From the UHGV virus genome UHGV-1366525: DNA of 53,490 nucleotides. One strand, 5' to 3'. Shown in pieces: positions 1,890 to 43,215 of this stretch. The position numbers and the translations under genes are program-made. Within the stretch, counting starts at the first letter, position 1. The number at the start of each line of letters is the position of its first letter. The DNA is from a virus. The notes beneath the pieces are model-generated. The model had not been told where the DNA came from. It saw only the letters and a list, made by a program, of their open reading frames with translations, and searched no databases.

Positions 1890-4853
1890 TTAATTACCAC
1901 CTGAAGGTATTTCTAAAATTACAGTAACATCGAAACTATCACCTGTACCATCTTTAACAGTATAAAGGGTAGGATAAGAAATGCCTCCACCTGTATTTGG
2001 ATAATTAGCAAGTTCAATTAAAACTGTTGTGTCATTACCTACAACAGTTCCTATACGTCCATTCTCTTCAGCGCCACCCCATTTATTCTCATCAGTAATA
2101 TAGAAAATATTTGCATTCATCGCCTGTACACCCGGAGAAGCATTCGCTTTACAAGTTATATTATAAACCTTACTCTTATCAGCATTTTGGAATCTAATTA
2201 CTGCAATATCAGGTGAATCTACGATAAACGGAAGAGAGACAAGTTCTATCGCAATGGATGCAATGCCTACACCAGTATCACCTTTGACACCTTGTACTCC
2301 CTGTGGTCCTGTCGGTCCGGCCGGTCCTTGAGGACCTGTGTCACCTGGGTCTCCCTTATCACCTTTAAGACCTTGTGGCCCTTGTGAACCTGTATCACCT
2401 TTTAACCCTTGAGGCCCTTGTTCACCTTGCTCACCTTGAGGACCGACAGGACCAATCTCTCCTTGGGGACCAACAGGACCAGTAGGACCTTCTGGTCCTT
2501 GAGCACCAGTGTCACCTTTCAATCCTTGGGCACCTTGAGGACCTCTAATATTACCCACCTTTGCGCCCATAGGTGCAGTAGTTTTTTGATATTGAACAAC
2601 ATCACCTAAAACCGTACTGACACCAAAAATTGTAAGACCTGCTACGGCTGCAACAACATAGTCATTTAAAATAATGCCCGGAACATCTGTAACACTCGTA
2701 ACATTCTCTGTTGCAAAGAAATATTCTGTTCCACGTTCACCAGTATCACCTTTTGGTCCTTGAGCGCCTGTATCACCTTTGAGACCTTGAACACCCTGTG
2801 GTCCCTGAGGTCCCTGTTCACCTGTGTCACCTTTAAGACCTTGAGGACCTTGTTCGCCCTGCTCTCCCTGTGGACCAACAGGACCTTGAATACCTTGCAA
2901 TCCTTGTGGACCTTGAGGACCTATATCGCCTTTTGGTCCTTGAAGAGGTCCATGATTCACCCATGTATAATTCCCACCATATAACTCACAAACATAGATG
3001 TCATATGGCTCAGTTGCTCCAACAGAAAAGGCGTGTCCTACAAGAGAGACATCTGCAGCGGGCAAGGAAGAAGAGGCATCTACATGCTCAGAAATAGAGA
3101 ATGATTGACCATCATCGCCTTTATCTCCCTTGTCACCTTTCGGTCCTTGAACACCCTGTGCACCAGCAGGTCCCTGAGCACCTGTATCACCTTTGATACC
3201 TTGAATACCTTGAGGACCTTGCTCGCCTTTCAAACCCTGCGGTCCTTGCGCACCAGCGGGTCCCTGTGGACCTTGAGCACCATCCGCACCTTTTGGCCCC
3301 TGTGGTCCTGTATCACCTTTAGGACCGGCAGGACCGGCGGGACCGGCGGGACCGGTATCACCAGTATCACCTTTAGGACCAGCAGGACCCTGTACTCCAG
3401 CAGGACCTGTGGCACCTGTCTCACCTTTTGGGCCTGTAGGACCTGTCGCACCTGTCTCACCTTTTACACCTTGTAAACCTTGTGGTCCTTGAGGACCTGT
3501 CTCACCTTGCAAGCCTTGAGGCCCTTGTTCACCTGGTTCACCTTTATCACCCTTTTCGCCTTGAATACCTTGCGGTCCTTGAGGCCCTTGAGCACCGGCC
3601 GGTCCCTGAGCACCCGTGTCACCTTTGAGACCTTGTGGTCCTTGCTCACCCGGGTCACCTTTAAGACCAACTGCGCCTGCGTCACCTTTATCACCTTTAG
3701 GACCTTGAATACCTTGCGGACCCTGTTCACCTTGCGGACCAACCGCACCCTGCAATCCTTGTGGTCCCTGAGGACCTGTTGGTCCCATAGGCCCCTCTGG
3801 ACCAGTTTGTCCTCTCGGTCCTTCCGGACCAGGAGCTCCTTGTGGCCCTTGAGGACCTGTCGCACCTGTATCACCTTTCAGACCCTGTGCACCTCTTACA
3901 CCTTGAGGACCTTCCGGACCTGTCTGTCCTTGAATACCTTGCAGACCTTGAGGTCCCTGTGGACCTGCCACACCTCTTGGACCTTCTGGACCTTGAGGAC
4001 CGGCTACACCAGCAGGCCCCTGTTCGCCTTTTGGACCTTGAGGACCTGCAGGACCTTCGCCAGCAATCAACTGCCACAAAGGAGAAGTCTTACTCGGTGT
4101 AACACCTTGTGTACCATCTGTCGTACAGACAAAAGATTCATTGTCATACGAGCAAGAGTCGAGCCTATTGTAGACACGAGTTGGGCTATAATCACCTGTG
4201 GGATTAAGTTCAGTATAACCTGTAGGACCTTCAGGACCAGGCTCGCCTTGTGGTCCCTGTGGACCCATAGGACCTTGAGGACCTGTATCACCCTTGTCAC
4301 CTTTGTCACCTTTGGGACCTACAGTACTACTATCGACAGGAATAAAATAAGGCACGGCAGAAGAACCTTCAGGAGTAACGACGATACCGTCAACAACTTC
4401 AAGTTGCCTCGTCCAAATACGACCATTCGCGAGGAGAACTTCTGTCAAGACATAGTTAAGGTCGTTTACCCATGTTGATACACCTTCAAGAAGAGCACCT
4501 GTTACGGTGATATATTCATTTTCACCATCAGGTACAATCTTATCTACAACAGTATTTGTATAGTTATAATACCAAATATTCGGTGTCTTTGTACCATCAA
4601 CACCATCATAAGTTATCCCATCAGGTATTGTACCAAGCACATTAACCTTATTGACGAAACGGTCCATGAGAGAAGGACTCGCCGAAACAATCTGGTCTTT
4701 AACTACAAAATCGGCAGGATTAAAACCTGCCATACCTACCTTATTAACATCTGCGACAGGAGCAAACAAGTTATACTTATCTTTTTGCATCACTACGCCA
4801 GACGCAGGGTTATAAGGAATTATACTTCTTTCTACAACATTCTTATCTGGCAT
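1890..4853 (-). CDS. collagen-like repeat tail fibre protein (987 aa)
   Basis: ORF track. Long G-X-Y tracts (GPQGPQG, GEQGPQG, KGDTG) in about seven blocks, separated by globular inserts, with non-collagen N- and C-terminal domains. RBS AGGGAGG upstream. Start overlaps the stop of the upstream gene. Confidence 0.85.
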
Positions 4854-6045
4854 TTGTCACGCCTCCCTGTATATTTGCACTTACAAATAATTTTTTAGGT
4901 TCAAGTATAATTGACTTAGTATCATAAGTAGGCATAATCGGCATACCCGAGTCATACAATTCTTGCATCTCTTTTCTAACTCGCCAGTCACTTATGAGTT
5001 TAATCTGTTCTTGCAGCTCAGCATCTGTCCAAGGAAGTTCAGGCACATCGTCACCTTCCGACAACAAGATACCATACACATGTTCTGCAACAGATTCACC
5101 TGCAAGGACTTTCGCATCATACAAATAAGTCTGTTCAGTCCAATCTTTCGTGTTAAATTGTTTAACTACCCGGAAGTTATAATCGTACCACTTATACTCA
5201 CCCTTGGCCGCAGGCGCATATCTCATGACATTGTGTGCTCTCTGCCAGTCAGAACTATTTGGAATAGACTCGCGTGTACCATTAGGATTTATAACATAAT
5301 AAATCGTATTATCATAGATACAAGTTTGACCCGCAGCATATGGCTGTCTCAACTCTTCAAATGTACGATATACCTCATCATACTGTAAATCATAAGTACC
5401 TTCATCTGTTATCATTTTAAGCCATTGTGTAGCAGTATCTGAAGGTTCTTCTGTAGGACTATCTTGTAGAGCCGCCCATACAGCATTATTATGGACGCAT
5501 GTGAATCCCCGCATTATATTTATACCGGGCGTATATTTTGGCGTGATAGGAAAACGATACACAGTAAGAATAGCCTCAGGCCAACAATATTTATACTGTC
5601 TATTACCATCATTATTAGAATCGGTATAGAACAAGTAATTACCTACAAAAAAGTCAGAAGTAGCGCTATCATTCATCTGTCCGCCTGCTTGATAGCCATA
5701 AAGACTAAGTGCCTCTGTGACACTGAAAGTCGAAAGATACAAGGCTTCTGTCTCAATAAACTTCTTACGCGGGCCTATCGACACAACTTTACCTGTTTTA
5801 TCCTCTTTCCATTCATTCGACAAATCAAGCCACCATGTCGTCCTAAAATCACCTTCTTGCTCATATCTTGCGGCGCTAACAGTGATTGCAAGATATGGAT
5901 TATCCCAGCCAATAAAGAGCATATAAGGGTCGCCTTTCTCATTCGTCACCTCAAAGTCAAGTGACCATGTCTCTCCTCGCTGGATATAAACATCATCTCC
6001 AACAGTTCTCATACTCACTCCTTGTCGGCCGTAATACCTGTACAT
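4843..6045 (-). CDS. hypothetical virion or tail protein (400 aa)
   Basis: ORF track. Sits in an operon with the fibre genes, with an overlapping start/stop. Confidence 0.7.
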
Positions 6046-6335: not shown

Positions 6336-8398
6336 TATCTATTACCTCCACTTAATTGTACTTGTTGTTGCACAGAAGTTCTCTCTGTCTCGGCTGAGTT
6401 CTTCTGATTTGTCTTATCCACATTTGCTGCATGTGTCTGCCCATTACCTTCAGGCCCGGAATTAGGTCTTGCCCCTCCTTGCCCGCTACTTTGCTGAGTG
6501 AGGGCTGCTGCCTGCTGCAAAATTTGCGGATTCTGCAAGAGGGCTTGCTCAAGGTCAGCAGGAATATGAGCAGATGCTTCTTGAATACCAGCGAGAGCCA
6601 TTTTTGACAGGGGGTATTGCATTTCATCCATAATATTCCAATACAGCTCAAGAACTCTCGGGTCTTGTGGATTGCCGAATGTCCCCATTGTGAATTGCTG
6701 CAGAGCTTCTTGCCACATCTGCACACGATTATTAGAGAGTGTGGCCGCCGGGTCAGTTGAGAAGGCAAAATCGTCTGCATAGTACAAGTTGCCCCATTTA
6801 TCTTTACGGAGGAACATGTACTTATTCCACAACATTTCTTCTTTCTGACCGTTGGGCAAGACTTTCACGAATCTGCGTGTCTCATCAGAGAATGCTAAGA
6901 GATACTTGAACATAAGCTCATAGACACCAGCAAATGCTGCGCTCTTCATCACACGCAAGGACTCAAGACGTCCCGCACTCTGTAAGGCAGAAATCTCTTT
7001 TGCTTTACCAGAAGTAGCCGTAGAATCTGTCTGACCTTGATAAGCTTGTGTAACACCGGAAGATGCTCTTGCACTCTCATAGAACAATTGTGCCGCGGCA
7101 ATATCCTGTGAGACATCGGCGAGTACTTGCTTAGACTGCACCATCTGTGCCTCTTCTGTCGTACGTACGCCCATAATCTTAAAAGTCTCATCCTCACTGT
7201 TCATCTTCATCTTTTGAGGCTTGGTAACCACAGTGCCAGACTTTAAGATTTTATCTTCTACTTTTGTGAGTATCTTATTGACAGAATCTTGCATCTCAAG
7301 CAAGATACCTACTTCAGAAATCCCATAAATTGTTTCCAAGGATGACACAGCCGGACGCGGAACAAAGGGAAGTTGCCGAATCTGATAGAACGGAACCTCT
7401 GTGCCTGCCTCGAGAAATGTCACTACCTCTGCGTTGTTGGTCGGGTCATCTGTCTCACCCTCGGCATAAGGATTTCTCAACAACTGTAAATCTTCTTCAA
7501 GAATCTCAGTCGTTGCATTCTCATAGTGAAAGTGTGTATTGCCACAATTCCTACAGACATCACCGATTGGATTCACCGTGCCACAGGCAGTACATTTACG
7601 AAGTTTGCGAATCTGCCAGTCATCGTCCCATGCAATTACTTGTCGCGACTGAGATGCATACATAAATCTGCCGATAACGCCATTCTCATTTCTATAATAA
7701 TAAGAAATGACCTCAGTCGTATTATTACCTGTGTTAATAGGAATTATGAGCCTGTGGTACAAATCATAGATTCTCGAGAGGCTCATCTCCGAGCGCTCAA
7801 ACCCATAGTTCATTATTCTATAATCTGTGCACCCGGGCTCGGGAATAAACTGGTCAGCGAGGAGACACTCTACTCTAAGGTCACCAGAACGCTCATAAGT
7901 ATTATCTAAGGAGTCCCAACAGATTTTATACCAAGAGGTGCCATCAATGTACGTCGCTCTCTCGGAACGGTCGTTCTCTTGTTCTGTCAGCATTCTGTCT
8001 ATCTCAAACTTCAGATAGTTCTCAGTCACATCAACAAGAGGGAGGTCCTCTTTCCGTCGCGGGGACAAACGAGGCATGGGAATAGAGTTATCAACAGTAG
8101 ACTCTATCAGCTCATATATCATCTTCCGCAAAGAAATAGACTTCCGCTTTGATTCTTTGCCAGTATCTCTGTCAAGCGCATTCAGCGTGCCGAGATAAGC
8201 TTTCCGCCACTTCCGCAAATTCTCTGGCGACACATAGGATATGCCCTCTTGATATGAAGAAGCGATGGCATAGAGAGCTGCTACCTTCTCTACCATAGCT
8301 TGTTCTTTCGGCGTGTTCTGATACCTATGGTCGATATTCCATTGTAGGTATAAATCTATTCTATCCATGCTTTTCCTCACTTTATTACACTCTATCAA
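6335..8398 (-). CDS. putative portal protein (687 aa)
   Basis: Assigned by position (first large gene after the large terminase) and by size. Contains a CxxC...CxxC insert (CTACGTVNPIGDVCRNCGN). No diagnostic motif was verified. Confidence 0.5.
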   Translation of the reverse strand: MIECNKVRKSMDRIDLYLQWNIDHRYQNTPKEQAMVEKVAALYAIASSYQEGISYVSPENLRKWRKAYLGTLNALDRDTGKESKRKSISLRKMIYELIESTVDNSIPMPRLSPRRKEDLPLVDVTENYLKFEIDRMLTEQENDRSERATYIDGTSWYKICWDSLDNTYERSGDLRVECLLADQFIPEPGCTDYRIMNYGFERSEMSLSRIYDLYHRLIIPINTGNNTTEVISYYYRNENGVIGRFMYASQSRQVIAWDDDWQIRKLRKCTACGTVNPIGDVCRNCGNTHFHYENATTEILEEDLQLLRNPYAEGETDDPTNNAEVVTFLEAGTEVPFYQIRQLPFVPRPAVSSLETIYGISEVGILLEMQDSVNKILTKVEDKILKSGTVVTKPQKMKMNSEDETFKIMGVRTTEEAQMVQSKQVLADVSQDIAAAQLFYESARASSGVTQAYQGQTDSTATSGKAKEISALQSAGRLESLRVMKSAAFAGVYELMFKYLLAFSDETRRFVKVLPNGQKEEMLWNKYMFLRKDKWGNLYYADDFAFSTDPAATLSNNRVQMWQEALQQFTMGTFGNPQDPRVLELYWNIMDEMQYPLSKMALAGIQEASAHIPADLEQALLQNPQILQQAAALTQQSSGQGGARPNSGPEGNGQTHAANVDKTNQKNSAETERTSVQQQVQLSGGNR

Positions 8399-8433: not shown

Positions 8434-8504
8434 AATTACCGTCTTTCTGACTGTCACTTTTAAGGAAAATCCCGAAAGAAATCATCTCAAAATATCGTGA
8501 ATAT

Positions 8505-8594
8505 GGATTTTAAGATATGATAGAGAGGAATTAAATATCCTCTTGAGATAATATTCACGGGAGAATATCATCCCTCTATTATATCTTAAAATCC
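8505..8594. repeat. palindromic hairpin element, copy 1 (arms GGATTTTAAGATATGATAGAGAGG / CCCTCTATTATATCTTAAAATCC)
   Basis: Inverted arms of 23-24 bp around a ~43-nt spacer that has its own internal pairing (CGTGAATAT / ATATTCACG). Intergenic, between the TerL stop and the portal start. Confidence 0.8.
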
Positions 8595-10475: not shown

Positions 10476-10670
10476 CTATTCGCGTCCCTTAGAAGGAGAC
10501 CAATCAGGTAACTCCCATGTCGGCTTCCAATTTGGGTCATACAACGGGTCCTCATATTTCGACGGCGGCTGGGAATCTTTTTCCTTCTTATCACATGCCG
10601 ACATAGGAACAAGAAAGAGGAAGGCCAGGGCTATTAGGAGAATGCTACATATCTTCTTTATATGGCGCAT
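10476..10670 (-). CDS. small secreted lipoprotein (signal peptide plus lipobox, Pro-rich ~40-aa mature part)
   Basis: Internal start MRHIKKICSILLIALAFLFLVPMSAC with GAGGT RBS. Lipobox-like MSAC, then DKKEKDSQPPSKYEDPLYDPNWKPTWELPDWSPSKGRE. Confidence 0.55.
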   Translation of the reverse strand: MRHIKKICSILLIALAFLFLVPMSACDKKEKDSQPPSKYEDPLYDPNWKPTWELPDWSPSKGRE

Positions 10671-11172
10671 ATTGTACCTCATCTTCTTTTGTGTCTGGCA
10701 TGCGAGGAATAGAGGTATCAGGCAGCGCTTGAGCAGAGTGATAGCCATCTAAGGCTTTTTGCATAACCTCGAGCTCCTCGTCAGTCAGCGACTCTAAGGG
10801 ATTAGTTACTTGTATCTGCTGTTTTGTTTCATCTATTGGTTTTGCTCCGATGCTATCCCGACGTGCAATATAAGATGAGGCATTATGTCTTGCATAATAA
10901 GACTGACAGCCCTCCATCATTTCACCTTCTGTTGGCAGACGCGATAATCCTTCTGCGCGGAGTTCTTCACACAGCTGCTCATATACGGCCTTCTCGATGA
11001 GATACTCCGGCGCGGGTACGTTATTTTTGTCATAGATAGGAACAGGAGGCAAAGCAGGTCGAGCCCATCTATCGACAATATTTTGTGACCAAGCAGCTCT
11101 CGCCCTCTTCGGGTCCTTAAAAATAACCTCAAATTCACGTTGGTCTCGCAACATCTTGTTCGTAATTTCCAT
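10645..11172 (-). CDS. hypothetical protein (175 aa); possible terminase small subunit by position only
   Basis: First gene of the minus-strand packaging block, upstream of terL. RBS GAGGTG. No motif verified. Confidence 0.6.
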   Translation of the reverse strand: MEITNKMLRDQREFEVIFKDPKRARAAWSQNIVDRWARPALPPVPIYDKNNVPAPEYLIEKAVYEQLCEELRAEGLSRLPTEGEMMEGCQSYYARHNASSYIARRDSIGAKPIDETKQQIQVTNPLESLTDEELEVMQKALDGYHSAQALPDTSIPRMPDTKEDEVQYAPYKEDM

Positions 11173-11207
11173 TTTATCACCTCATTCTATTTTATGAAAA
11201 ATTTTGA

Positions 11208-11220
11208 AATTTTATACGAC
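11208..11220 (-). promoter_or_regulatory. conserved motif TTGTCGTATAAAAT upstream of the first late-block gene
   Basis: Second copy of the motif seen at 8421..8433, about 35 nt upstream of the ATG at 11172. Confidence 0.35.
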
Positions 11221-11345
11221 AAGAAAACAAGAAGAAGGCGGAGCGGGAGGAAGAAACTAATATGGTTCAAACTAATTAGTTTGATGTATATGCAAGCTCT
11301 CGTGTGCGCACGCGATTATCCATATTATATAGGGATTTCTTTTGT

Positions 11346-11407
11346 GTTTGGTAGTTTGTTGGTTTATATGTTTGGTAGTTTGTTGGTTTATATGTTTGGT
11401 AGTTTTT
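11346..11407. repeat. tandem direct repeat, 24-bp unit GTTTGGTAGTTTGTTGGTTTATAT x ~2.6
   Basis: Read directly. Lies in the divergent intergenic region between the minus late block and the plus early block. Confidence 0.85.
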
Positions 11408-11672
11408 ATAACTTAAATATTTGAAACCAAAATTCTTATGAGCATTAGAGCAGAATGTCATATATCCTCTCCTCTGAAGAGCCGCCCGGGCTCGAATTTT
11501 AATATGGTTCAAAATACATATAACCATCTCTCGAAGAGGTCGAGAGAGAAAGACCCCTCACAATCGAATAAGACAATGCCTCTCTCTTTCAGAGTTCTCT
11601 CTCAGTCCATGATGATGAACACTGCGCTCGACCCGGGTTTTCTCCGATAGGTGGAATCTCGAACAACCAAAC

Positions 11673-11707
11673 CGTCAGAGATGACCCGGAGCAAATCAGC
11701 CTTGGAA
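11673..11707. repeat. left arm of a perfect 35-bp inverted repeat (CGTCAGAGATGACCCGGAGCAAATCAGCCTTGGAA)
   Basis: Exact reverse complement of 12834..12868. Extends to 39/40 identity with flanks. Confidence 0.9.
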
Positions 11708-11725
11708 TCTCGTTCAGAAGTCAAG

Positions 11726-11968
11726 ATGACAGGATTAGGATTAGTTTACAAGAAGTCAGAGAGAAGAGTCCGAGAAATCAAAGAGAGTTTAGTGGACTTC
11801 CTCGACGGTAGCGACAAGAGAAGAATCAAGAATGCCCGCCGATATGAAGATTGGCGAATGGAACAAGAGTACAAAGAAGAACATAGAAAAGGTTATTGTC
11901 CCACCTGCTTCTGTTTGAGAATGAAGTCAGGTAAATGCCCGAATGGGTGTGATAGCACGCGCGATTAG
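11726..11968 (+). CDS. possible small Cys-rich protein (C-terminal CPTCFC...CPNGC)
   Basis: Within ORF-track frame 11651..11968. No convincing RBS. Overlaps IR-L. Low confidence. Confidence 0.25.
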   Translation: MTGLGLVYKKSERRVREIKESLVDFLDGSDKRRIKNARRYEDWRMEQEYKEEHRKGYCPTCFCLRMKSGKCPNGCDSTRD

Positions 11969-12000
11969 CGATGCTGATGATTAAAAGATAGGAGGTTATT

Positions 12001-12420
12001 ATGAATAGAGTTTACAAGGTTGACGATGGTTTTGAAGTAGTCTGCGACAATGGAGAAGTTGTCAAAGGTGTCAGATGGTTTGAGAAAAAGACTGGTGTCT
12101 GGCATATCAAACTGCCTGCGAATAATCCGACAGGGAGGACCTATATCAGAGAATCGAAACTCAATGCCGATGGTGAATATGAGTTCGAGACCAAGACGAC
12201 GGGTCCGCGAGTCATCGGAAGTGATTTCCTCGATAGAATGACCGAAGAAGAAAGAGACGAATACGAGGAACTCGCCGAACAGAAGAAAGAGATTGACGAG
12301 AGACTCGACGAACTCAAGAAGCTCGCGCTCAGCAGACCGAAGCCGGAGTTGACCGAAGAAGAGAAGTTGCAAAGAGAGATTGAGAAGCTGCAGGCCAAAC
12401 TCAAGATGCTGAAGAAGTAA
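12001..12420 (+). CDS. hypothetical protein, paralog family member A (N-domain WFEK..WHI..L...KTTGPRxIG plus C-terminal coiled coil TEEEKL..IEKLQ.KL)
   Basis: ORF track. RBS AGGAGG. Clear paralogy with 14564..15004 and 15080..15286. Confidence 0.85.
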   Translation: MNRVYKVDDGFEVVCDNGEVVKGVRWFEKKTGVWHIKLPANNPTGRTYIRESKLNADGEYEFETKTTGPRVIGSDFLDRMTEEERDEYEELAEQKKEIDERLDELKKLALSRPKPELTEEEKLQREIEKLQAKLKMLKK

Positions 12421-12432
12421 GGAGATAAGAGA

Positions 12433-12615
12433 ATGAACGAGACACCTATGACCTGTGCAATATGTGGTTGCATCATAGATGATAACGACATGTGGGAATG
12501 CGAAAATTGCGGCAGAATCGTCTGTGGTTATTGTATTGATAGTGAGGGACTCTGTGACGATTGTCATGATGAGTTTGAAGAGAAGTTCAAAAGCACGCAC
12601 GGATTCATGTGGTAG
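12433..12615 (+). CDS. small zinc-ribbon protein (4x CxxC), single unit
   Basis: CAICGC..CENCG..CGYC..CDDC. RBS AAGGAG. The unit is repeated twice in 13016..13297. Confidence 0.8.
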   Translation: MNETPMTCAICGCIIDDNDMWECENCGRIVCGYCIDSEGLCDDCHDEFEEKFKSTHGFMW

Positions 12616-12628
12616 GAGGTAAATAGAC

Positions 12629-12823
12629 ATGACGATGAACGAGAAGAACAAGGTATACGAACTCACGAAACTCGCGCTCGATGGATTAACGACAGAAGAG
12701 AAACTTGACCTTGATTGGGCAGGCCTGCCGAGCCCAGAGCATGCTGTCGTCGTAACTGTTGCCGACATGCTCAACTATGATGCAAGTAATGACGAAATTG
12801 AAGAGATAGTGAATGAACTGTAA
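12629..12823 (+). CDS. small acidic hypothetical protein (64 aa)
   Basis: ORF track. RBS AGGAGG. Confidence 0.7.
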   Translation: MTMNEKNKVYELTKLALDGLTTEEKLDLDWAGLPSPEHAVVVTVADMLNYDASNDEIEEIVNEL

Positions 12824-12833
12824 TGTAATGAGG

Positions 12834-12868
12834 TTCCAAGGCTGATTTGCTCCGGGTCATCTCTGACG
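12834..12868. repeat. right arm of the perfect 35-bp inverted repeat
   Basis: Reverse complement of 11673..11707. Confidence 0.9.
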
Positions 12869-13015
12869 ATTTAGTCACACTTAGACGAGACAATTAGGGA
12901 GTACAGAGTAATACAAGTAGAGGAGGTGAGTAATAGATAGAATAGAGCACGGTATCCCAAGGGGTTATTCTACCCAAATGAGCTGTAAAACTAAATACAT
13001 ATTAGGAGGTTAGTT

Positions 13016-13297
13016 ATGTACAAGTGTAGTATTTGTGGTCGTAGTATCGACATTGATAAAGACGAACATTTTGTTTGTGATGAATGTGGTGAAATCGTCT
13101 GTCCTGATTGTATCTCTGATAGAGGTTTCTGTAAAAACTGTACCGATTTTGAACCTGATGTGTTTTACTGTCATGTTTGTGGTCGTATATGTGACACAGA
13201 AGATGGTGATTATGAGGTCTGTGACGAATGTGGACATGTTGTTTGCCCAGATTGTTTTGACAGGTATTCCGGATTGTGTCGAAAATGTTTGATGTAA
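13016..13297 (+). CDS. tandem-duplicated zinc-ribbon protein (two 4xCxxC units)
   Basis: CSICG..CDECG..CPDC..CKNC followed by CHVCG..CDECG..CPDC..CRKC. RBS AGGAGG. Confidence 0.8.
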   Translation: MYKCSICGRSIDIDKDEHFVCDECGEIVCPDCISDRGFCKNCTDFEPDVFYCHVCGRICDTEDGDYEVCDECGHVVCPDCFDRYSGLCRKCLM

Positions 13298-13315
13298 GGA
13301 GGAATATCGAGTAAA

Positions 13316-13540
13316 ATGCACTATCACATCATGGTTCATCACGACAATAAGAACAAAGAAGTCTTTCTCGAAGGTGAATTCAACGAAAGTATGTTACTTA
13401 GATACCTAAAACGTGAGTTCGGGAAGGATTTTATCGCGTCTGTCTATGTTTCTGAGGAGTCTTACAGTGAGACTATCCTCGAAAGTTGGTCATTTTGTAG
13501 TCATGGAGGTGTTGTAGAGACAAAGAAAAGTAGAATTTAA
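13316..13540 (+). CDS. hypothetical protein (74 aa)
   Basis: ORF track. RBS AAGGAGG. Confidence 0.65.
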   Translation: MHYHIMVHHDNKNKEVFLEGEFNESMLLRYLKREFGKDFIASVYVSEESYSETILESWSFCSHGGVVETKKSRI

Positions 13541-13577
13541 GTGATTTATCATATTATCATATATCGATTTTTGAGAT

Positions 13578-13694
13578 ATACCGCTTAATTTTCATCGTCA
13601 TTTTATCCGGACAAGAGAGGAAAATCATCGCTTTTAGTCTTATACCGCTTATTTTCCTCGCTATTTTGCTCTGACAAGAGGGAAAATCCTCATC
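13578..13694. repeat. two ~53-bp imperfect direct repeats (iterons), 64-bp period: ATACCGCTTAATTTTCATCGTCATTTTATCCGGACAAGAGAGGAAAATCATCGC / ATACCGCTTATTTTCCTCGCTATTTTGCTCTGACAAGAGGGAAAATCCTCATC
   Basis: Read directly. Each unit also holds a short internal inverted repeat (TTTTCCTC / GAGGGAAAA). Confidence 0.8.
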
Positions 13695-13970
13695 ATATGA
13701 TATGATTTTGTATAATATAAGATAAAATCCCTTAGAGAAATAAAAAATTTCATCATATTATCATATATCATATTATCATATGACTTTTTAAAAATAAAAT
13801 ATAGACCTATAAATATTATAGTATATTATATAATATATAATAATATAAATAGTACTATATTATCTTAAAAATAAAAAGTCATATGATAATATGATATATG
13901 ATAATATGATAGAATTTTTATTTTTCCTATAGGGAATCATCTTATATTATACAAAATCATATCATATGAT
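13691..13970. repeat. ~280-bp AT-rich imperfect palindrome (outer 33-bp arms 13691..13723 and 13938..13970; inner 37-bp arms 13752..13788 and 13874..13910); candidate replication origin
   Basis: Both arm pairs are exact reverse complements. The centre TATATTATATAATATATA is itself palindromic. Iterons lie immediately upstream. Confidence 0.7.
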
Positions 13971-14071
13971 GAGAGATTATACCTTACGACCATATAACCA
14001 TTGTAATCCGGATATCTTGCAAATCTTATTCTCATTGTAACTACATAATTCAACATTAGGAGGCATAAATA

Positions 14072-14443
14072 ATGAATATCGTGTACGACCCTGTAGATAA
14101 CTTAACTTTCAATGAGCAAAAATATATTGACCCACACACGCATATCTTTATAAAGAAGAGACCCCTCATACCGAATGAGCAATGGCAAACGTCTATCTTT
14201 GTAGAAGCCCCTGCTCATCCGGCAATGCAATCAAAAGCAATCTTATTGTCAAGTGCAATCAGTAACAAATCCGAGAATGATGCCACCTGTAGAGCAGTAG
14301 ACAATTATAATTATATTGTCCAAACTATCAATCAATTTATTATCGAAACACATCCCACGACAGTTCCTCCTCGTCCCTTCCCTCTGCTCCCGCCTCTGAC
14401 ATATCTCATTGTCAATACGCTGAAAGATATTACACAATTATAG
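14072..14443 (+). CDS. hypothetical protein (123 aa)
   Basis: ORF track. RBS AGGAGG. Confidence 0.7.
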   Translation: MNIVYDPVDNLTFNEQKYIDPHTHIFIKKRPLIPNEQWQTSIFVEAPAHPAMQSKAILLSSAISNKSENDATCRAVDNYNYIVQTINQFIIETHPTTVPPRPFPLLPPLTYLIVNTLKDITQL

Positions 14444-14475
14444 GTTCTTCAATTAAAGGTTCATAATTCTAAAAT

Positions 14476-14510
14476 AAGTGCATATAATATATATGTAGCA
14501 ATTCGAGAGA
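14476..14510 (+). promoter_or_regulatory. candidate sigma-70-type promoter (TTCATA, 17 nt, TATAAT)
   Basis: Perfect -10 TATAAT with 4/6 -35 at 17-bp spacing, about 55 nt upstream of the 14564 gene. Confidence 0.35.
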
Positions 14511-14563: not shown

Positions 14564-15004
14564 ATGTCTGTCAAAATCACCTGTATCAACAAAGAAACTG
14601 AGTCCGGAGTCCCCGAGTTTGAGGCTCTTGACCTCGCTACCAACGAATCCATTCCTATCAAGAATTGGTTCGAGAAGAGCAAGGACAAATGGCACATCGT
14701 CCTTGGCCCTAACTCCGCAAATCGTAAGTATATTGCACATAATGAGTTCTTCGCTAAGGCCGAGAATGACGAATATATTGTCGAGGATAAGACTACTGGT
14801 CCTCGCAAAATCGGAACGAGCCAGCCTGACCGCCATCTCATTCCTTTCATGACGGCAGAAGATAAGGAAGCGTACGATAGTATCATTGCGCGTGCAATCG
14901 AGAATCGTAATGCCCAGAAAGCCCAGAAGCCCGTCATGACTGAGGAAGAAAAGCTCATGGCGCAGATTGAGAAGTTGCAGAAGAAGCTCGCAGCTCTTAA
15001 CTAA
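14564..15004 (+). CDS. hypothetical protein, paralog family member B (full length)
   Basis: Shares NWFEKSKDKWHIVL...KTTGPRKIG and C-terminal MTEEEKLMAQIEKLQKKL with 12001..12420. RBS AAGGAG. Confidence 0.85.
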   Translation: MSVKITCINKETESGVPEFEALDLATNESIPIKNWFEKSKDKWHIVLGPNSANRKYIAHNEFFAKAENDEYIVEDKTTGPRKIGTSQPDRHLIPFMTAEDKEAYDSIIARAIENRNAQKAQKPVMTEEEKLMAQIEKLQKKLAALN

Positions 15005-16187: not shown

Positions 16188-16457
16188 ATGACAGAAGAGC
16201 AAAAGTTACAACTGAGATGTGTCACTGAGATGGAGTTGACAAATTTCTATATTGACCCACTCACAAAGTGTGACCTTCTCCGGAAACTGAGGCAGTTAGG
16301 TCTGCAAGAAGAAAAAGGTGCCTTCTCGGCGACAATCCGTGTGCTGCTGCAGTATTTCGCCGACTCTAAATTTGACGGCATTATTGATGACATCCACACG
16401 TCTATTCGCAGAGAGGTGCTTCTCACAAAATCCAAAAGTAAGAGGTCTACGCTATGA
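16188..16457 (+). CDS. small protein upstream of, and translationally coupled to, the MazF-like gene (candidate cognate antitoxin)
   Basis: ATGA overlap with the 16454 gene, the classic antitoxin-first layout. RBS AAGGAGAAAG. No sequence similarity to MazE was verified. Confidence 0.65.
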   Translation: MTEEQKLQLRCVTEMELTNFYIDPLTKCDLLRKLRQLGLQEEKGAFSATIRVLLQYFADSKFDGIIDDIHTSIRREVLLTKSKSKRSTL

Positions 16458-17140
16458 CAAATACCGTCTACATCCACAAAGGTGACATCTTTTGGCTGTC
16501 TCTCCCTCAGGCCTCTGCATCCTCTACCTCTATTCAGCAAGGGAACAGACCGTATATCGTTATCTCATCTAACTCCGGTTGCATCTCCAGTCCCGTGATT
16601 TCGGTTATCCCTTGTACGACGAAGTTTAAGTCCCTCTCTATTAACGTCACCTTATCGTACAATATCAAAGGGCTGCCGATGCAAGCGTTGTGTAATCAGA
16701 TTCAAACAATCCCGAGAGAGCTCCTCCTCTCTCATAATTATATCGGCAGAGTTACGGACATTGACCTCTCTAATATAGATGAGGCAATCTGTAAAGCATA
16801 TTCTCTCCACCAGACCACCCCATCCTCAACTCCTCTTGTCGATATGCAACAGCAGTTTACCCAAATAGTAGCAAAGATTAAAGAAGAATGCCTCTCCCTC
16901 ACAAAAGACTTGTCTTTTACGGAGAAGCTTATTCATCCGCAAGATAAAAAGCCGTATCTACGCAGAACTACTCTTGACAAGATTAGATTTATGGAAGATT
17001 GGCAATCTTCCATGACACGAGAAGAAGTTGCCGAGAAGCATCACTTTTCTTCGGTGTCGGTAGCAAGAGCAACGTATGGCAGATGGTCGCCATGGTATAA
17101 GAATTTGAGAAGGAGTAAGAGTAATGGAACCGGAGATTAA
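16454..17140 (+). CDS. MazF/PemK/Kid-family toxin domain (N-terminal ~115 aa) fused to a C-terminal HTH-containing domain
   Basis: KGDIFWLSLPQ...GNRPYIVIS...VIPCTTKFKSLSINVTL...MQALCNQIQTI aligns with E. coli MazF (GDLIWVDFDPT..RPAVVLS..CVPCTTQSKGYPFEVVL..VALADQVKSI) and Kid. The C-terminal MTREEVAEKHHFSSVSVARATYGRW is HTH-like. Confidence 0.8.
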   Translation: MTNTVYIHKGDIFWLSLPQASASSTSIQQGNRPYIVISSNSGCISSPVISVIPCTTKFKSLSINVTLSYNIKGLPMQALCNQIQTIPRELLLSHNYIGRVTDIDLSNIDEAICKAYSLHQTTPSSTPLVDMQQQFTQIVAKIKEECLSLTKDLSFTEKLIHPQDKKPYLRRTTLDKIRFMEDWQSSMTREEVAEKHHFSSVSVARATYGRWSPWYKNLRRSKSNGTGD

Positions 17141-20012: not shown

Positions 20013-20118
20013 TTTTAAGATATAATAGAAGGGAGGAATTAGAGTGCGGATTCTTTATCGAGACTCTATCTAATTCCTCCCTATTATATCTTAAAATCCA
20101 AATAGCTCGTATTCTGGG
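20013..20118. repeat. palindromic hairpin element, copy 2 (with 3' flank extension AAATAGCTCGTATTCTGGG)
   Basis: Arms TTTTTAAGATATAATAGAAGGGAGGAATTAGAG / CTCTATCTAATTCCTCCCTATTATATCTTAAAATCC. The extension is the reverse complement of the 5' extension of copy 3. Confidence 0.85.
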
Positions 20119-20178
20119 AGAGATTCTAAAAAGATTCATAATTCCGGAAAATCTGCATATAATATAATGTAGGAATTT

Positions 20179-23665: not shown

Positions 23666-23740
23666 CGAGGTGTAGCGCAATGGTAGCGCGCTTGCTTTGG
23701 GAGCAAGATGCTGCAGGTTCGAGTCCTGTCACCTCGACCA
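23666..23740 (+). tRNA. tRNA-Pro (anticodon TGG)
   Basis: Cloverleaf folded by hand: acceptor CGAGGTG/CACCTCG, D arm GCGC, anticodon loop TTTGGGA, T loop TTCGAGT, encoded CCA. Confidence 0.85.
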
Positions 23741-23743
23741 TCT

Positions 23744-23819
23744 GGACCTATAGCACAATGGTGAGTGCATCCGGCTCATAACCGGACGGTTTTTGGTTCG
23801 AGTCCAAATAGGTCCACCA
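23744..23819 (+). tRNA. tRNA-Met (anticodon CAT; initiator/elongator/Ile2 not resolved)
   Basis: Acceptor GGACCTA/TAGGTCC, anticodon stem TCCGG/CCGGA with loop CTCATAA, T arm TTTGG-TTCGAGT-CCAAA, CCA. Confidence 0.85.
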
Positions 23820-23822
23820 TTT

Positions 23823-23898
23823 GCTGGTATAGCTCAATAGGCAGAGCAACTGACTTGTAATCAGTAGGTTGTCGGTTCAAGTCCGACTATCAGCTCCA
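23823..23898 (+). tRNA. tRNA-Thr (anticodon TGT)
   Basis: Acceptor GCTGGTA/TATCAGC (one G-U), anticodon stem ACTGA/TCAGT with loop CTTGTAA, T loop TTCAAGT, CCA. Confidence 0.85.
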
Positions 23899-23990
23899 AT
23901 CTCTACAACTGAACTCTTTAGCGAACAATCAAAATCCCCCGAAAGGTTTATCAGTTTGCCGTGATAAGAAAGCAGGTTGTAGAGAACTAA

Positions 23991-24065
23991 TGGGGTTTAG
24001 CCAAGCGGTAAGGCATGGGACTTTGACTCCCACATTCACAGGTTCAAATCCTGTAACCCCAGCCA
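23991..24065 (+). tRNA. tRNA-Gln (anticodon TTG)
   Basis: Near-identical architecture to E. coli tRNA-Gln(UUG) (UGGGGU..GCCAAGCGGUAAGGC..CUUUGAC..UUCAAAUCC..ACCCCAGCCA). U1-A72 pair. Confidence 0.85.
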
Positions 24066-31591: not shown

Positions 31592-31592
31592 T

Positions 31593-31699
31593 CCCAGAAT
31601 ACGAGCTATTTGGATTTTAAGATATAATAGAGAGGAATTATAGAGAGTCTCGAATAAATCCTCATCAAGAATAATGGAATCTCTATTATATCTTAAAAA
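31593..31699. repeat. palindromic hairpin element, copy 3 (with 5' flank extension CCCAGAATACGAGCTATTTGG)
   Basis: Arms GGATTTTAAGATATAATAGAGAGG / CTCTATTATATCTTAAAAA, spacer ~45 nt. Immediately after the DNA-polymerase stop. Confidence 0.85.
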
Positions 31700-31707
31700 G
31701 GACAGAG

Positions 31708-32007
31708 GTGATAGATATGTACAAGCGAGGATACTCGATAATTGAAGGAAATATATTAGTCATAGGTGACACGACGACACCCTATGACTTTTGGACATGG
31801 AGAGAGGCGGCAAACTTTCTAATTGACAAATGTTATGGCATGAAGAAGGCAATGTATTTAGTAGAAAAAGACAGAGAACACCTGGTACTCAGGTGTCCTC
31901 TGACTGGAGAGTATCTTACGGTCCTCGGAAGCGAGGCCGATTTGGAGAAAATCAACAGAACTTTTATTCTACAAAACCTCTATCGCCAAGATAAACGCCA
32001 GAAGTAA
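31708..32007 (+). CDS. hypothetical protein (99 aa); last gene of the plus-strand block
   Basis: ORF track. RBS AGAGGTG. Its 3' end overlaps the 3' end of the convergent giant gene by 44 nt. Confidence 0.65.
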   Translation: MIDMYKRGYSIIEGNILVIGDTTTPYDFWTWREAANFLIDKCYGMKKAMYLVEKDREHLVLRCPLTGEYLTVLGSEADLEKINRTFILQNLYRQDKRQK

Positions 32008-35000
32008 CTCCTGCCGCCCGTAGACGTTGATACAAAGAGTTCTCTGCATAGTATTTGTGTCCTTGTTTAGTCCAATACCATATCTTTGCAATGGTAGAGT
32101 TTTGTGTCATTGTCCTATTTATTACGTTTGCCTTCTGCTCATCACTGAGTTTCGACCAAGGTAATGTACGATAACTGCCATCTTTCATCTTCACATTGTG
32201 TGATTGATTCTTGATATTCGCAAGAGCTATCTTGTTGAGTTCACCATATTTCTTGTTAACTTCATACCAATCAAGCTCTTTCTGGGCGCCATCTACTGTG
32301 ATATTCGCAGTTATGGCGCCCTTTTTCATACCCAAGCTCTCTGCATATTCTTGCATATCGCTTTGATATTCCCAAAGGATTCTCGGACCTATCAAACCAC
32401 CTTTCAGAAGTTCACCTATGAATGGCAAGGCATATTTCATTTGCGTTTCACCTGTGTAAGGGTCAACATATCTCTCGCCAAGAGGTTGGGTAGGAATCCA
32501 AGAATTAAGCCAACGTTCCCACATACCTTTCATACCTGAGGAGTATTTTATCTTCTCATTGTTGAGTGCTCTCACAAACAATTGCACAAACTGTGGTACA
32601 AAAGAACGGAGAATAGACTCAGTCTCTGTCAGCATAGCCTCATACATAGAACTGTCCCATCTGTGACGGTCGATAATGTCTTTCAACAAGAAGCCCTCTG
32701 TATAAGTGTTCCAGATGAAGTCCATAATATCTGTGGCACTCTTTTTGCCTATCTGCATGAGGGAAGCACCGACAAGGATAGACGAAGAGGCAAAGATGTT
32801 ACTGATATCTACTTTCACATCGCCAACAGTCATATAGAACTTGTCGTCATCATCCTCAATTTTCAGTACTCCTGTCGCAGCAAGAATTGCACCAAGCCCG
32901 AGCATTAACATTCCTATAACGCCTTTGCCTAAGTCACGCCGAGCATAAAACTCTGCCATTCTACTGTCAATAACGCTTTCACCTTTACGACGTCTCTCTG
33001 CAAGCTTTTGAGCTGTCTGTTCTATCTTTGTCATATTGTAGATAGAACGAATAAGACCTGCAGGTGTATATTTAAGCATTTCTTGGAACCAGTTGAATGA
33101 AGAGTTAATGAATGGTTGGAACCAATGCAATACTTCATACAATGTTCTGTGCTTGTCATACAGACCATCAATCATATCTGCAAGAGCAGAACGTTTCCGC
33201 ATGTAATCTGTATTAGCAGCAAGAATAGACTCTGCAAAAAGATTCAGCACATCGTGAGAAAGTCCTTGGTCAAGAGACACATTGCCTTTTTCTACCTCTA
33301 TTGTCAGCATCTTGCCGAGATAACGTGTAGCAGCGAGTTTGATAAAAGCTTTATCACTAATCATTCTATTGACAAAGTTAGAAATCATATTAGCTGTCTT
33401 GCTATCAAATCTGTGTTCTGCGGCATATTTTCTCTCAAGTGCTTGAGTAATGAGGCTTATAAAGAGTGTTTGCTCTCTCGTTTTCTCCTTGCCACGATAG
33501 TCATACTTGTTAACGCCCTCAAACAAATCTTTGAATGCCGGGTTGTTTTTAATCTCTCTGTCTATGAATGCCTTAACCTCATCGGAAGTTTTTACTTTTG
33601 CCAAGTTCCATTGGTCGGCTCTCTTATAAGAATCTTTCGGCATACCAATATTGCCAATGGCATCAGCAGCTCTATTAAGGACAAGGTTCACAACGTTAGA
33701 GACTTGGTTCCTCACCCATGTCATTGGAGATGACAGCATGAACGTATATCTTGCCGAAGTAAGTTTCTTGTACCATCTCTTGCCAAAGCCTTTTGGTTCT
33801 AAGCTTTTTTCTACAAAGAGATTTTCTACTCGCTTCATTTCCTCGGCAACTACTACCGCTCTCTGCTTGCGTTCTTCATAAGTTTTAGCATTCTGCAGAG
33901 CTTCAATCGCATCATACAAAGGTTCTGCCTCAAGTTCTGTGATATTATACTCATCAAGCATTCTCTGTTGAATTTGCTTGAGAGGATTTATCACATTGAG
34001 CATTTGTGAGACAGCCTGCAATCCGGAGCCATACGCACTTGCCAATCTCTCATACGTTTGTTGTACAATAGCCAGCTCAGCATCTGACATATTCCAGCCA
34101 TTTGTATTGCGTCTACCGGCATCAATTACATAACCCAGCAAGAAGAGTTGGAAAGCGTACAATTTGTTGACAGGGCCATTAAGAGTAGCGACACCAGACT
34201 GAATGAACTCTACCATATCGAGCATCTCTTGCCGAGTCATGTTCATAAGTGTCTCTCTATTTGCCTCATAAAAAGTATTCCAATTAGCTACCTCATGCTG
34301 CAATCTACTCTTAAACTCTTTAGAATCTTTTGTATAGAGATTGCCATTCTCATCAACAGACGCAAATTGTACCTTTGTATCTGCCATATCAGCAAAAGAA
34401 GTATCAAATATCTTGCGGACTATATCTGGCATTTCTACAGCAGAGACGATATTAAACACGTTAGGCGTATCAGAAGTTTTCTTTTTCTTCTTGTCTACCT
34501 TGAATTCTGTTGTTTTTACATTCTCTGGTGCTTTTATTTTGCCTTTCGATTTGTTAAGTGCCTCTACATCTTTTGCGATACGACGCTCTCTTTCTGTCTC
34601 TAATTGTTTAACACGTTTTGCCGTATCTTTGTTTTGATACACACCTGCTCTTGCATCTCTCGCTACAGCCTTCAAACGTTCTTCATTTCTTTGTGCAAAG
34701 GTTGTATCTTTTATATTCTGTCCACCGCGACCTACAAGATAGGTGTCCTCTTTCAATTTGCGTGTTTGATACTTCTTGCCATTCTCATCAGTTGTGGTGA
34801 CAGTTTCAAACATGTTGCGTACATCTTCAGGCAGAAGAGACCAAACAAGTTGACCTTCATTCACACGTTTCAATAATTGATTCGCATAACGAATAATATT
34901 CGCACGTACCTGTACATATTTCTTACGAGGAACTTCTCTACCGTCTATCTCTACTGTCGGACTCACGTCAGTATTCTGTGCATCTCTGATATAGTTATAT

Positions 35001-41629: not shown

Positions 41630-41707
41630 AAATAATACCTCCTGCCGGCTCTTCGCCGGTGATAATATTCTTTCAAGGATAAAATCCTTGAGAGTATCGC
41701 TTTTAGA

Positions 41708-41796
41708 GATTTTAAGATATAATGGGAAGGATTCGCAACAATCCTTGGGAGAATCATCGCGAATCTTTTTCGTCCTTCTATTATATCTTAAAATCC
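41708..41796. repeat. palindromic hairpin element, copy 4
   Basis: Arms GATTTTAAGATATAATGGGAAGGA / TCCTTCTATTATATCTTAAAATCC. Spacer carries GATTCGC...GCGAATC. Lies between the 475-aa gene stop and the giant gene start. Confidence 0.8.
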
Positions 41797-43215
41797 TGAT
41801 GTGCCTTTCTTATTAGATTGCTTATTCGATGCATAAGTATTTGCGGAATCTACAAGTTTTTGATATGCGGCGTTAATCTTAGCCTTCTGTGATTTGACAT
41901 AATCATTCATTTTCGCCAACAATCTCTTAGCCTCTGCCCGTGCTTCTTCTAATTGTTTCTCTAATCTGCTCTTCTCATAGGTATCACCTATTGTAAGACC
42001 ATCTATTTTGCTCTGAATACTTGCTACTCTTCTCTGTGCAGTCTGTTGTGCTTTAGACAAGGATTGATACTCACCATTAACAAGTTCGTTAGAAAGGCTT
42101 TCAAACTCATCAAAAGCACTCTTATTAGCATCATAGAACTCACGATATTGCTCAGCATTAAATTTCTTTTGTAGCTCATCAGTGAGTGTCTCGTAAGACT
42201 TCTGCACTTCTTTGGTGTATTCATCCCAAGTATGCTGACCTTCAATATTAAATGTCGGAGCAGAAAGTGTACCTGCAGTCTCATTACTAAGATACTCACC
42301 TTCATTATAAGCTTCGTCTGTAGATTCTCTACCAGCATAAGCCGCAGCAGTTCCGGCGTTTGTGCCTTTGAAAGTATAATTGAATGGGTCAGCACTCGCA
42401 AACCATGTACGCAACTCCGGATTTTCTTCAGCAAGCCAAGCATCGAACGATTTGACAGCAGTACCATCTGCTTTAGTATAACCTTCAGGTCGCATGTTCA
42501 TAAGTTGGTCAAAGTACTGAATACCTCTTTGCGTCAAAGCTCCAGAGTCATCAAACAAGAGAGTTGACAATTGTTCCCAAGGAAGAGCTTGACCGCTATC
42601 CGGGTCGACGAGCCAACCGAGTCCTTGACCTATTGCGATGTCCTCAGGTTTCTTTGCTTGTCCTGCATACTCTTTACCCTTGCCACCTTCTGTCGTCGTA
42701 GTACCTTCTTCTTTGTTCTCATAATACAAGGGAGTATCTGGGTCAGTAACAAGATGAGTAGAACCAACGAGCTCTTTGGCAAGATATTGATATGCGCTAT
42801 TATACAAGTTTGCAAAGTTTTCTGCTCTTTCATTCAGCGCAGTATCAATCATGCCTACTTCATCTTGATAAGTTTGAGCCACTTCACTCTGTGCATTCTG
42901 ATAGTCACGCATATAATTAGAATAAGCACTGAGCAAATCTTGCCGATTCATACCGATAAGTTCTTGTGTAGCACCAACATTTAAGCCTTGACCCATTAAA
43001 TTATTTTGCTGCTGAAAATTTGCCGCATAGGCATCTGCAATAGCTTTATTGTAATCAGTCTTTAAGGCGTCAGCTTGAGCCTCATAACCGAGGCTCGCAT
43101 TGCCGAAGAGCTGACGCCAAGAACGAATACCTGTCTGCTGTTTATCATTCTGCTCTATGATATTACGCATATCACTCGCTGTAATATTGATGCCATATGG
43201 TAATGTGTTAGCCAT
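41788..43215 (-). CDS. hypothetical virion protein (475 aa), Q/N-rich with C-terminal coiled coil
   Basis: ORF track. RBS GAGGG. Start overlaps the stop of the upstream gene. Confidence 0.75.
   Translation of the reverse strand: MANTLPYGINITASDMRNIIEQNDKQQTGIRSWRQLFGNASLGYEAQADALKTDYNKAIADAYAANFQQQNNLMGQGLNVGATQELIGMNRQDLLSAYSNYMRDYQNAQSEVAQTYQDEVGMIDTALNERAENFANLYNSAYQYLAKELVGSTHLVTDPDTPLYYENKEEGTTTTEGGKGKEYAGQAKKPEDIAIGQGLGWLVDPDSGQALPWEQLSTLLFDDSGALTQRGIQYFDQLMNMRPEGYTKADGTAVKSFDAWLAEENPELRTWFASADPFNYTFKGTNAGTAAAYAGRESTDEAYNEGEYLSNETAGTLSAPTFNIEGQHTWDEYTKEVQKSYETLTDELQKKFNAEQYREFYDANKSAFDEFESLSNELVNGEYQSLSKAQQTAQRRVASIQSKIDGLTIGDTYEKSRLEKQLEEARAEAKRLLAKMNDYVKSQKAKINAAYQKLVDSANTYASNKQSNKKGTSGF

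Follow-up and report, generated by a model that had tools for sequence, protein, structure and literature searches.

The window analyzed here, a stretch of 53,490 nucleotides (nt) from the virus genome UHGV-1366525 that is essentially an entire phage genome, contains a long inverted repeat whose two arms bracket a block of four small genes. The repeat is real and non-random, and its complementarity is conserved. Our favored, still tentative, reading is that a long-range RNA helix of the two arms joins the 5′ untranslated region (UTR) of one early polycistronic transcript to its 3′ UTR and would act as a target of RNase III, as a protector of the transcript ends, or as a brake on translation. 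This reading draws on the precision with which the arms frame the block in two lineages that differ in gene content, on changes that affect both arms together, on predicted folds, and on analogues that have been studied experimentally. Feature coordinates are collected in Table 1.

Extent and Position of the Inverted Repeat

The core of the left arm (11673–11707, + strand; CGTCAGAGATGACCCGGAGCAAATCAGCCTTGGAA) is the exact reverse complement of 12834–12868, as a reading of the sequence and a pattern search both confirmed, and the two perfect cores are separated by a spacer of 1126 bp; on both points the first-pass annotation of this DNA was correct. Composition alone predicts about 4e-12 perfect inverted pairs of 35 nt in 53.5 kb. 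When up to three mismatches were allowed, the arm matched the window at these two places only, and 100 shuffles gave no match; the repeat is far beyond chance, as had been claimed. A repeat search extended the arms to 49 nt at 92% identity (45/49; 11666–11714 and 12827–12875). The earlier figure of 39/40 for the match with its flanks is slightly off: four extra bases on either one side give 38/39, and on both sides 41/43. The genome, which had been called AT-rich, is so only moderately (40.9% GC), and the arm itself has 54% GC.

Both arms sit against the coding block with little room to spare. The left arm ends at 11714, 11 nt ahead of the ATG of the first gene (ORF80, an open reading frame of 80 codons) and 2–3 nt ahead of a weak Shine-Dalgarno sequence, GAAG, at 11717–11720. 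At the other end, the stop codon of the acidic-protein gene occupies 12821–12823, and the right arm begins 3 nt on, at 12827. The right arm is non-coding DNA, with the acidic-protein gene on one side and a RING-like gene, at 13016, on the other. Between the arms lie four co-oriented + strand genes with intergenic gaps of 12–32 nt, and no + strand terminator is predicted there. The block had been described as a three-gene cassette; it holds four genes, ORF80 (11726–11968) having been missed.

In folds of the 1.4–1.5 kb operon RNA computed with RNAfold, the helix appears in both the minimum free energy (MFE) and the centroid structures, for the window and for a sister lineage described below. 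The window helix comprises 35 perfect pairs and seven more that include two G·U pairs; within its inner 7 bp, both positions that are not Watson-Crick are G·U wobbles on the + strand. In both lineages the predicted duplex, at about 20 bp or more, is long and stable enough for a helix of this kind.

Covariation With a Sister Lineage

The sister lineage is represented by three genomes (L037, L038, and L039) that are identical in the region across three samples. Its DNA is 68% identical to the window here, and its gene A product is 76% identical. L037 carries an 18-nt perfect repeat, AGAAGCCTTGATAGCTCG at 5710–5727 with its complement at 7049–7066, the two being 1321 nt apart; about 7e-5 such repeats are expected in the space searched. 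The L037 helix comes to 22–28 bp, made up of the 18 perfect pairs plus four to five on each side, or 22 pairs with a bulge.

The bracketing recurs although the enclosed genes differ. The last gene encodes 133 amino acids in L037 vs. 64 in the window, and the spacing of the arms is 1321 vs. 1126 nt. As in the window, the left arm of L037 adjoins the ORF80 homolog on its upstream side, with the helix ending at about 5733 and the ATG at 5744. Its right arm begins 8 nt past the stop codon at 7038–7040, or 1 nt past it (7042) if a 4-bp flanking extension is counted. In both lineages, then, the helix ends about 11 nt upstream of the first AUG, a start codon with a weak Shine-Dalgarno sequence, and resumes 1–3 nt past the last stop.

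Across the homologous pairs (window 11690–11714 and 12827–12851), seven of 25 are changed on both arms between the window and L037 and are still Watson-Crick, with 95% of cells paired. Shuffled controls gave 1.3 ± 1.1 such changes, with none of 500 reaching seven, and slid registers gave 0–2. These counts refer to the 25-pair alignment; a first, longer alignment was distorted by gap placement.

Changes of this kind would also be expected if one DNA- or RNA-binding protein recognized both arms as inverted copies of its site; the zinc-ribbon protein ORF80, whose gene adjoins the left arm on its inner side, would be a candidate. Such sites on either side of the operon would serve autoregulation, looping, or insulation, and both copies would change together, tracking the specificity of that one protein. 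In line with this, ORF80 and the repeat have the same phyletic distribution, being present in the window and L037 lineages only. Perfect identity over 35 nt (window) or 18 nt (L037), however, far exceeds what a binding site usually needs, the arm lacks internal dyad symmetry (6/12 positions, the same as in shuffles), and neither ORF80 nor any other protein of the cassette matches a DNA-binding family. We regard this explanation as improbable.

Proposed Role in the Early Transcript

Under the favored reading of the arms as a long-range RNA helix, transcription would start upstream of 11527, as a conserved promoter-like block and a covarying leader hairpin suggest, and the transcript would extend across the four genes from ORF80 to the acidic-protein gene. 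Once transcribed, the right arm would pair with the left arm in the leader, and the resulting duplex of 42–49 bp would close the whole translated block into a loop. Host RNase III could cut this duplex and release the operon mRNA from a longer early transcript, after which both mRNA ends would stay base-paired and be protected from exonucleases. Lying 2–3 nt from the weak Shine-Dalgarno sequence of ORF80, the helix may also limit initiation at the first gene, a brake that would be relieved when ribosomes come to the stop codon of the last gene, 3 nt from the helix, and transiently open the duplex.

A more elaborate version, which we consider a long shot, has the helix close the operon mRNA into a loop that sets the last stop (3 nt from the helix) beside the first start (11 nt from it). 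Terminating ribosomes would open it and re-initiate on the first gene, or the paired ends left by RNase III would yield a protected, possibly ligatable, pseudo-circular mRNA. If true, such a closed-loop operon mRNA would be a phage-encoded bacterial analogue of eukaryotic mRNA circularization on the scale of a whole operon.

Of the three explanations offered in the first-pass annotation, it is accordingly the RNA duplex that we prefer, for the placement of the arms in the leader and just past the last stop, the seven both-arm changes, and the MFE and centroid folds; the invertible segment and the mobile cassette, taken up below, fared poorly.

Variation Among Close Relatives and the Case for a DNA-Level Repeat

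The close relatives comprise about 27 contigs with at least 15 haplotypes, 92–100% identical in the region and drawn from independent metagenomes, including short Logan contigs. Both arms are present in all of them except L075, and with the terminase side and the RING-gene side as references their orientation is always the same. Among the haplotypes examined, the perfect 35-mer occurs only in that of the window, which is shared with the near-identical copies L017, L022, L027, and L030. Most other haplotypes have a G·G mismatch at arm position 20 and a U·G wobble at 12838, produced by A>G there, the most frequent of the derived polymorphisms; in a few, one to three additional mismatches occur. 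Like the two wobbles of the window helix, this U·G pair counts in favor of pairing in RNA. The arms are 897–1099 nt apart among close relatives, a range explained by the presence or absence of the zinc-ribbon gene via a direct repeat. In L075, a short Logan contig, about 640 nt (1409–2049) replace window positions ~12720–12972, so that the acidic-protein gene lacks its 3′ half and both the right arm and most of the spacer are gone; the replacement encodes two unrelated small proteins of 72 and 99 amino acids.

Several observations weigh against the RNA helix. In the arm cores, 8 of 70 positions are variable, compared with 6–16% of sites in neighboring segments, and of nine within-lineage changes seven break a pair and none is compensated. 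L075 retains its left arm with no new partner, so the helix is dispensable in at least one background. In the window, the fixed mismatches at the outer end of the helix (11672/12869 and 11668/12873) are both C·A on the + strand, which means that wobble use singles out neither strand; counted over fixed or common differences, the + strand has three G·U against two C·A, which is not decisive. The covariation rests on one sister lineage and could be mimicked by gene conversion, or by a protein-binding site present in two copies. A scan of 10500–14500 against Rfam (E ≤ 1) matched no family. Finally, the transcript boundaries, the promoter, the cleavage by RNase III, and the effect on translation are all inferred.

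More distant relatives add a further point on this side. Drawn from IMG/VR (TerL and gene A loci), from JGI metagenomes (gene A loci), and from the L040, L069, L077, and L080 lineages, they were searched with exact and wobble-tolerant ungapped helix scans, each compared with shuffles. No complementarity between the leader and downstream sequence rose above shuffles in the distant relatives examined. An apparent 19-nt repeat in L046 turned out to be merely two divergent ribosome-binding sites. Comparing duplex energies of leader and downstream sequence was uninformative, since whole sequences were paired and shuffles scored almost equally.

Much of this would fit an inverted repeat in DNA that has no function of its own, having arisen by inverted partial duplication or by a template switch at a replication fork, after which templated mutation or gene conversion would have preserved the likeness of its arms and, in the window lineage, extended them. 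The phage encodes a DUF2800 PD-(D/E)XK exonuclease and a Gp2.5/Enc34-type protein that binds and anneals single-stranded DNA, and these two acting together may promote such exchange between the arms. In the window, the right arm looks in its outer part like a copy of the left: L037 has a homolog of the left arm's outer 22 nt, as leader sequence that is unpaired, and none of their right-arm counterpart. Uncompensated polymorphism within a lineage, arms as variable as their flanks, a variant lacking the right arm, and the confinement of the repeat to two related lineages all agree with such an origin. On the other hand, the 18-nt arm of L037 is short for conversion across 1.3 kb, yet it is perfect amid surroundings of 68% identity, and conversion between inverted repeats should also produce inversions, of which the approximately 27 contigs contain none. 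A functionless repeat also leaves unexplained why the helix ends match the first start and the last stop, and do so in two lineages that differ in gene content. We consider this origin unlikely, though it is the leading rival of the RNA helix.

Proposed Inversion and Mobility of the Bracketed Block

The arms might instead be recombination sites at which the 1.1-kb block is turned around by a host invertase, or through homologous recombination, so that its four early genes are shut off. Short inverted repeats border the invertible segments known from the G segment of phage Mu (gix) and from Salmonella (hix), and the Mu G segment resembles the present case in size and geometry, inverted repeats of 34 bp there and 35 bp here flanking a phage segment in the kilobase range. 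A perfect match of 35 bp is also long enough for annealase-driven recombination, and the phage encodes proteins of that type. Against this, we found no serine or tyrosine recombinase (Resolvase, Recombinase, Phage_integrase) among 43 open reading frames of at least 90 amino acids when the 53.5-kb genome was scanned with Pfam and PHROG. The scan matched 20 Pfam families, all listed, and covers enzymes encoded by the phage itself. That no invertase is to be seen in the window, as had been noted, is thereby borne out, and the proposal that a recombinase be sought elsewhere in the genome likewise led to none in these 43 reading frames.

The assembled contigs point the same way, with a single orientation in about 27 contigs, at least 15 haplotypes, and two lineages. 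A flip would bring no alternative gene or promoter into play, all four genes being co-oriented, and no conserved open reading frame is found on the opposite strand of the block; the window thus differs from Mu G and hix in lacking an alternative coding arrangement, as well as an invertase gene and a dyad-symmetric crossover site. The best dyad of the 12-2-12 form scores 6/12, vs. a shuffle mean of 6.0, and the arm shows no similarity to hix or gix sequences, a result to be taken as a lead only. Arm length, moreover, differs between the lineages (18 vs. 35–49 nt). The suggestion of an invertible segment with gix/hix-like sites is therefore not sustained, and we judge inversion very improbable.

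The remaining suggestion was that the arms are terminal inverted repeats of a mobile, moron-like cassette. Gene content is fluid near the 3′ end of the block, where the zinc-ribbon gene is present or absent and the 3′ end of L075 has been swapped. The breakpoints of these changes, however, fall at direct repeats within the block instead of at its arms. No transposase was found in the cassette or among the reading frames scanned across the genome, and no target-site duplication is found at either definition of the arm ends (flanks ...GAACAACCAAAC before the left arm and ATTTAGTCACAC... after the right), the latter as already noted. The arm has no further copy in the genome, its 22-nt core had no exact match in IMG/VR, and at the DNA level the region had no match in INPHARED (megablast and word-11 blastn).

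Members of the gene A family outside the cassette had been said to fit mobility. They do not, as both paralogs hold fixed, syntenic places in relatives without the repeat. In all relatives, with the repeat or without it, gene A adjoins a small gene upstream of the terminase, and its paralog lies beyond a large AT-rich hairpin. The comparison with related phages that the first-pass annotation had proposed thus reveals no inversion and a gene A that stays in place where the arms are missing. The mobile-cassette reading is largely refuted, and we assign it next to no probability.

The AT-rich hairpin just mentioned (13689–13973) is an inverted repeat of hairpin type with 13–18% GC, 113-nt arms that are 85% complementary, and a palindromic center. 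Its position between the gene A paralogs is conserved in all relatives, with equivalents at 6423–6760 in L001, 1924–2151 in L007, 7073–7322 in L012, 7439–7730 in L037, and 7142–7361 in L040, and it is where several assemblies start or stop. Its candidate roles are those of a replication origin, a genome end, or a terminator acting in both directions.

Enclosed Genes, Leader, and Genome Context

Table 1. Positions of the repeat arms, the bracketed genes, and the leader elements in the window.
Feature	Coordinates	Strand	Description
Promoter-like block	11494–11529	+	GAATTTTAATATGGTTCAAAATACATATAACCATCT; conserved upstream of leader; L037 5516–5551; 85% over 41 nt in distant relative L001
Leader hairpin	11527–11547	+	Stem 11527–11534/11540–11547, loop AGAGG; directly 3′ of conserved block; predicted in MFE and centroid folds
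Left arm, long-range inverted repeat	11666–11714	+	Core 11673–11707; 11690–11714 homologous to sister-lineage helix; 5′ untranslated leader
ORF80	11726–11968	+	80 amino acids, Cys-rich C-terminal CPTCFCLRMKSGKCPNGC; first gene of bracketed operon; weak Shine-Dalgarno
Gene A	12001–12420	+	139 amino acids; small beta domain then helical hairpin; old paralog of 14564–15004
Zinc-ribbon gene	12433–12615	+	60 amino acids; present or absent among near-identical genomes
Acidic-protein gene	12629–12823	+	64 amino acids; last gene of bracketed block; stop 12821–12823
Right arm, long-range inverted repeat	12827–12875	+	Core 12834–12868; 12827–12851 homologous to sister-lineage helix

No protein of the cassette has a Pfam or PHROG function. 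ORF80 is 66% identical to its L037 homolog, and its homologs form only two protein clusters in 5.8 billion sequences, restricted to the two repeat-bearing lineages. Its weak GAAG contrasts with the AGGAGG found at every other gene here. Some gene callers use alternative in-frame starts for ORF80 (ATG 11681 and TTG 11702), neither of which has a Shine-Dalgarno sequence. We considered whether the left arm might be coding sequence and rejected this, the conserved start being ATG 11726 (5744 in L037), though an N-terminal extension keeps a small probability. For gene A, a GenBank TPA protein record exists (Caudoviricetes sp.). The zinc-ribbon gene is bounded by a direct repeat of about 30 nt (12414–12442 and 12616–12644) that covers the ribosome-binding and start region and reads GTAAGGAGGTAAATAGACATGACrATGAACGA in L018; its arrangement suggests that the gene has been gained or lost by short-homology recombination.

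The same sequence as the window was recovered as contigs of 53.2–54.0 kb from many independent metagenome assemblies. To the left of the repeat lie a 175-amino-acid gene and the large terminase gene, both on the minus strand. To its right, a long series of small plus-strand genes is followed by replication genes (ligase, primase, helicase, polymerase) and genes for a sigma factor, ThyX, and a MazF-like protein. From its position among these gene blocks, the bracketed block is the first operon of the presumed early arm. No cultured phage is a near relative, the best TerL matches (33–34% identical) being to phages of Bacillus and Staphylococcus. Together with the strong AGGAGG ribosome-binding sites, this distant similarity weakly suggests a Firmicute host.

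The conserved block upstream of the leader, whose cross-lineage form is GAATTTTAATAyGGTTCAAAATnnATATAACCATCT, is probably an early promoter. No good match to the sigma-70 consensus was found in it, and neither arm of the repeat contains a sigma-70-like match. A second copy of TAATATGGTTCAAA occurs at 11258–11274, 240 nt upstream of the conserved block. L037 has a hairpin at the place equivalent to the leader hairpin with another stem sequence (ATCTGAA/TTCAGAT), so that the stem covaries between the lineages; the predicted hairpin is a possible 5′-terminal stem-loop of the early transcript.

Three tandem copies of a 24-nt repeat (TTTGGTAGTTTGTTGGTTTATATG) occupy 11340–11411, in the stretch that separates the early leader from the terminase-side operon. 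The copy number and unit sequence vary among otherwise near-identical genomes, and scaffold gaps occur there; L037 has other, longer direct repeats at 5262–5470. Elsewhere in the window, an intergenic module of 40–90 nt with TTTTAAGATATAATAGAGAGGA is found at 8475–8591, 20013–20119, 31592–31712, 41698–41736, and 48455–48571, in orientations that follow the gene blocks. Probably these modules are promoters used with the sigma factor that the phage encodes, and the remaining long “inverted repeats” of the window are explained by them.

Other features of the genome include two giant reading frames of 3221 and 1483 amino acids without a Pfam match (31964–41629 and 43215–47666, both minus strand), a 987-amino-acid collagen-repeat protein (1890–4853, minus strand), and, at 23666–24065, four clustered tRNA genes (Pro, Met, Thr, Gln). 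In the early/middle region, 16454–17140 encodes a 228-amino-acid protein with a PemK/MazF-like endoribonuclease domain (Pfam E = 6.5e-14), for which the gene call in L017 is shorter (153 amino acids).

Comparison With Known Systems

That genes are bracketed by a long perfect inverted repeat is not in itself a sign of an element that inverts or moves, and the closest parallels to the present one may lie in RNA. In rRNA operons, complementary segments 1.5–3 kb apart pair around the 16S and 23S rRNA to form the sites at which RNase III releases them. There, as proposed here, complementary segments of one transcript enclose a functional unit. The rRNA stems, however, enclose structural RNAs and are universal, whereas the phage element encloses a translated operon and occurs in two lineages. 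In phage T7, host RNase III cuts the early polycistronic mRNA, and in the stable units so formed the remaining stem shields the ends. The T7 sites are local hairpins between genes, in contrast to a stem formed from sequences 1.1 kb apart.

Pairing between the two ends of an mRNA has a precedent in icaR of Staphylococcus aureus, in which the 3′ UTR pairs with the 5′ UTR, masks the Shine-Dalgarno region, blocks initiation, and creates a substrate for RNase III (Ruiz de los Mozos et al., 2013; PMC3868564). The phage helix is similar in that its length would suffice for RNase III and in that it abuts the weak Shine-Dalgarno sequence of the first gene. It differs in scale, as icaR is monocistronic and pairs through a short UCCCCUG anti-Shine-Dalgarno motif, whereas the phage helix is 42–49 bp long (22–28 bp in the sister lineage) and encloses a four-gene operon of about 1.1 kb. 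The Shine-Dalgarno sequence also lies next to the phage helix and not inside it as in icaR, and the phage case is a prediction from sequence.

A second precedent comes from a Firmicute, Bacillus subtilis, where a 14-bp pairing of the 5′ UTR of hbs with its 3′ UTR modulates cleavage by RNase Y (Braun, Durand and Condon, 2017; PMC5737220). As proposed for the phage, the two ends of the mRNA pair, which in hbs modulates the access of ribonucleases to the leader and so links stability with translation. The hbs helix is much shorter than that of the phage, is part of a monocistronic mRNA of the cell, and has RNase Y/J1 as the nucleases on which it acts.

If the helix reading is right, the phage repeat would be an unusually long and clean example of 5′/3′ end pairing, with a natural allelic series consisting of the perfect 35-bp form, forms with one to three mismatches, the 18-bp form of the sister lineage, and one variant without the right arm. 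Such a series would make it easier to test how end pairing sets the stability, processing, and translation of phage early transcripts. To our knowledge, very few cases of end pairing in bacterial mRNAs have been studied experimentally (such as icaR and hbs), and none for a whole operon of a double-stranded DNA phage. Set beside these systems, the repeat is most likely a phage version, unusually long and on the scale of an operon, of the pairing of 5′ and 3′ mRNA ends.

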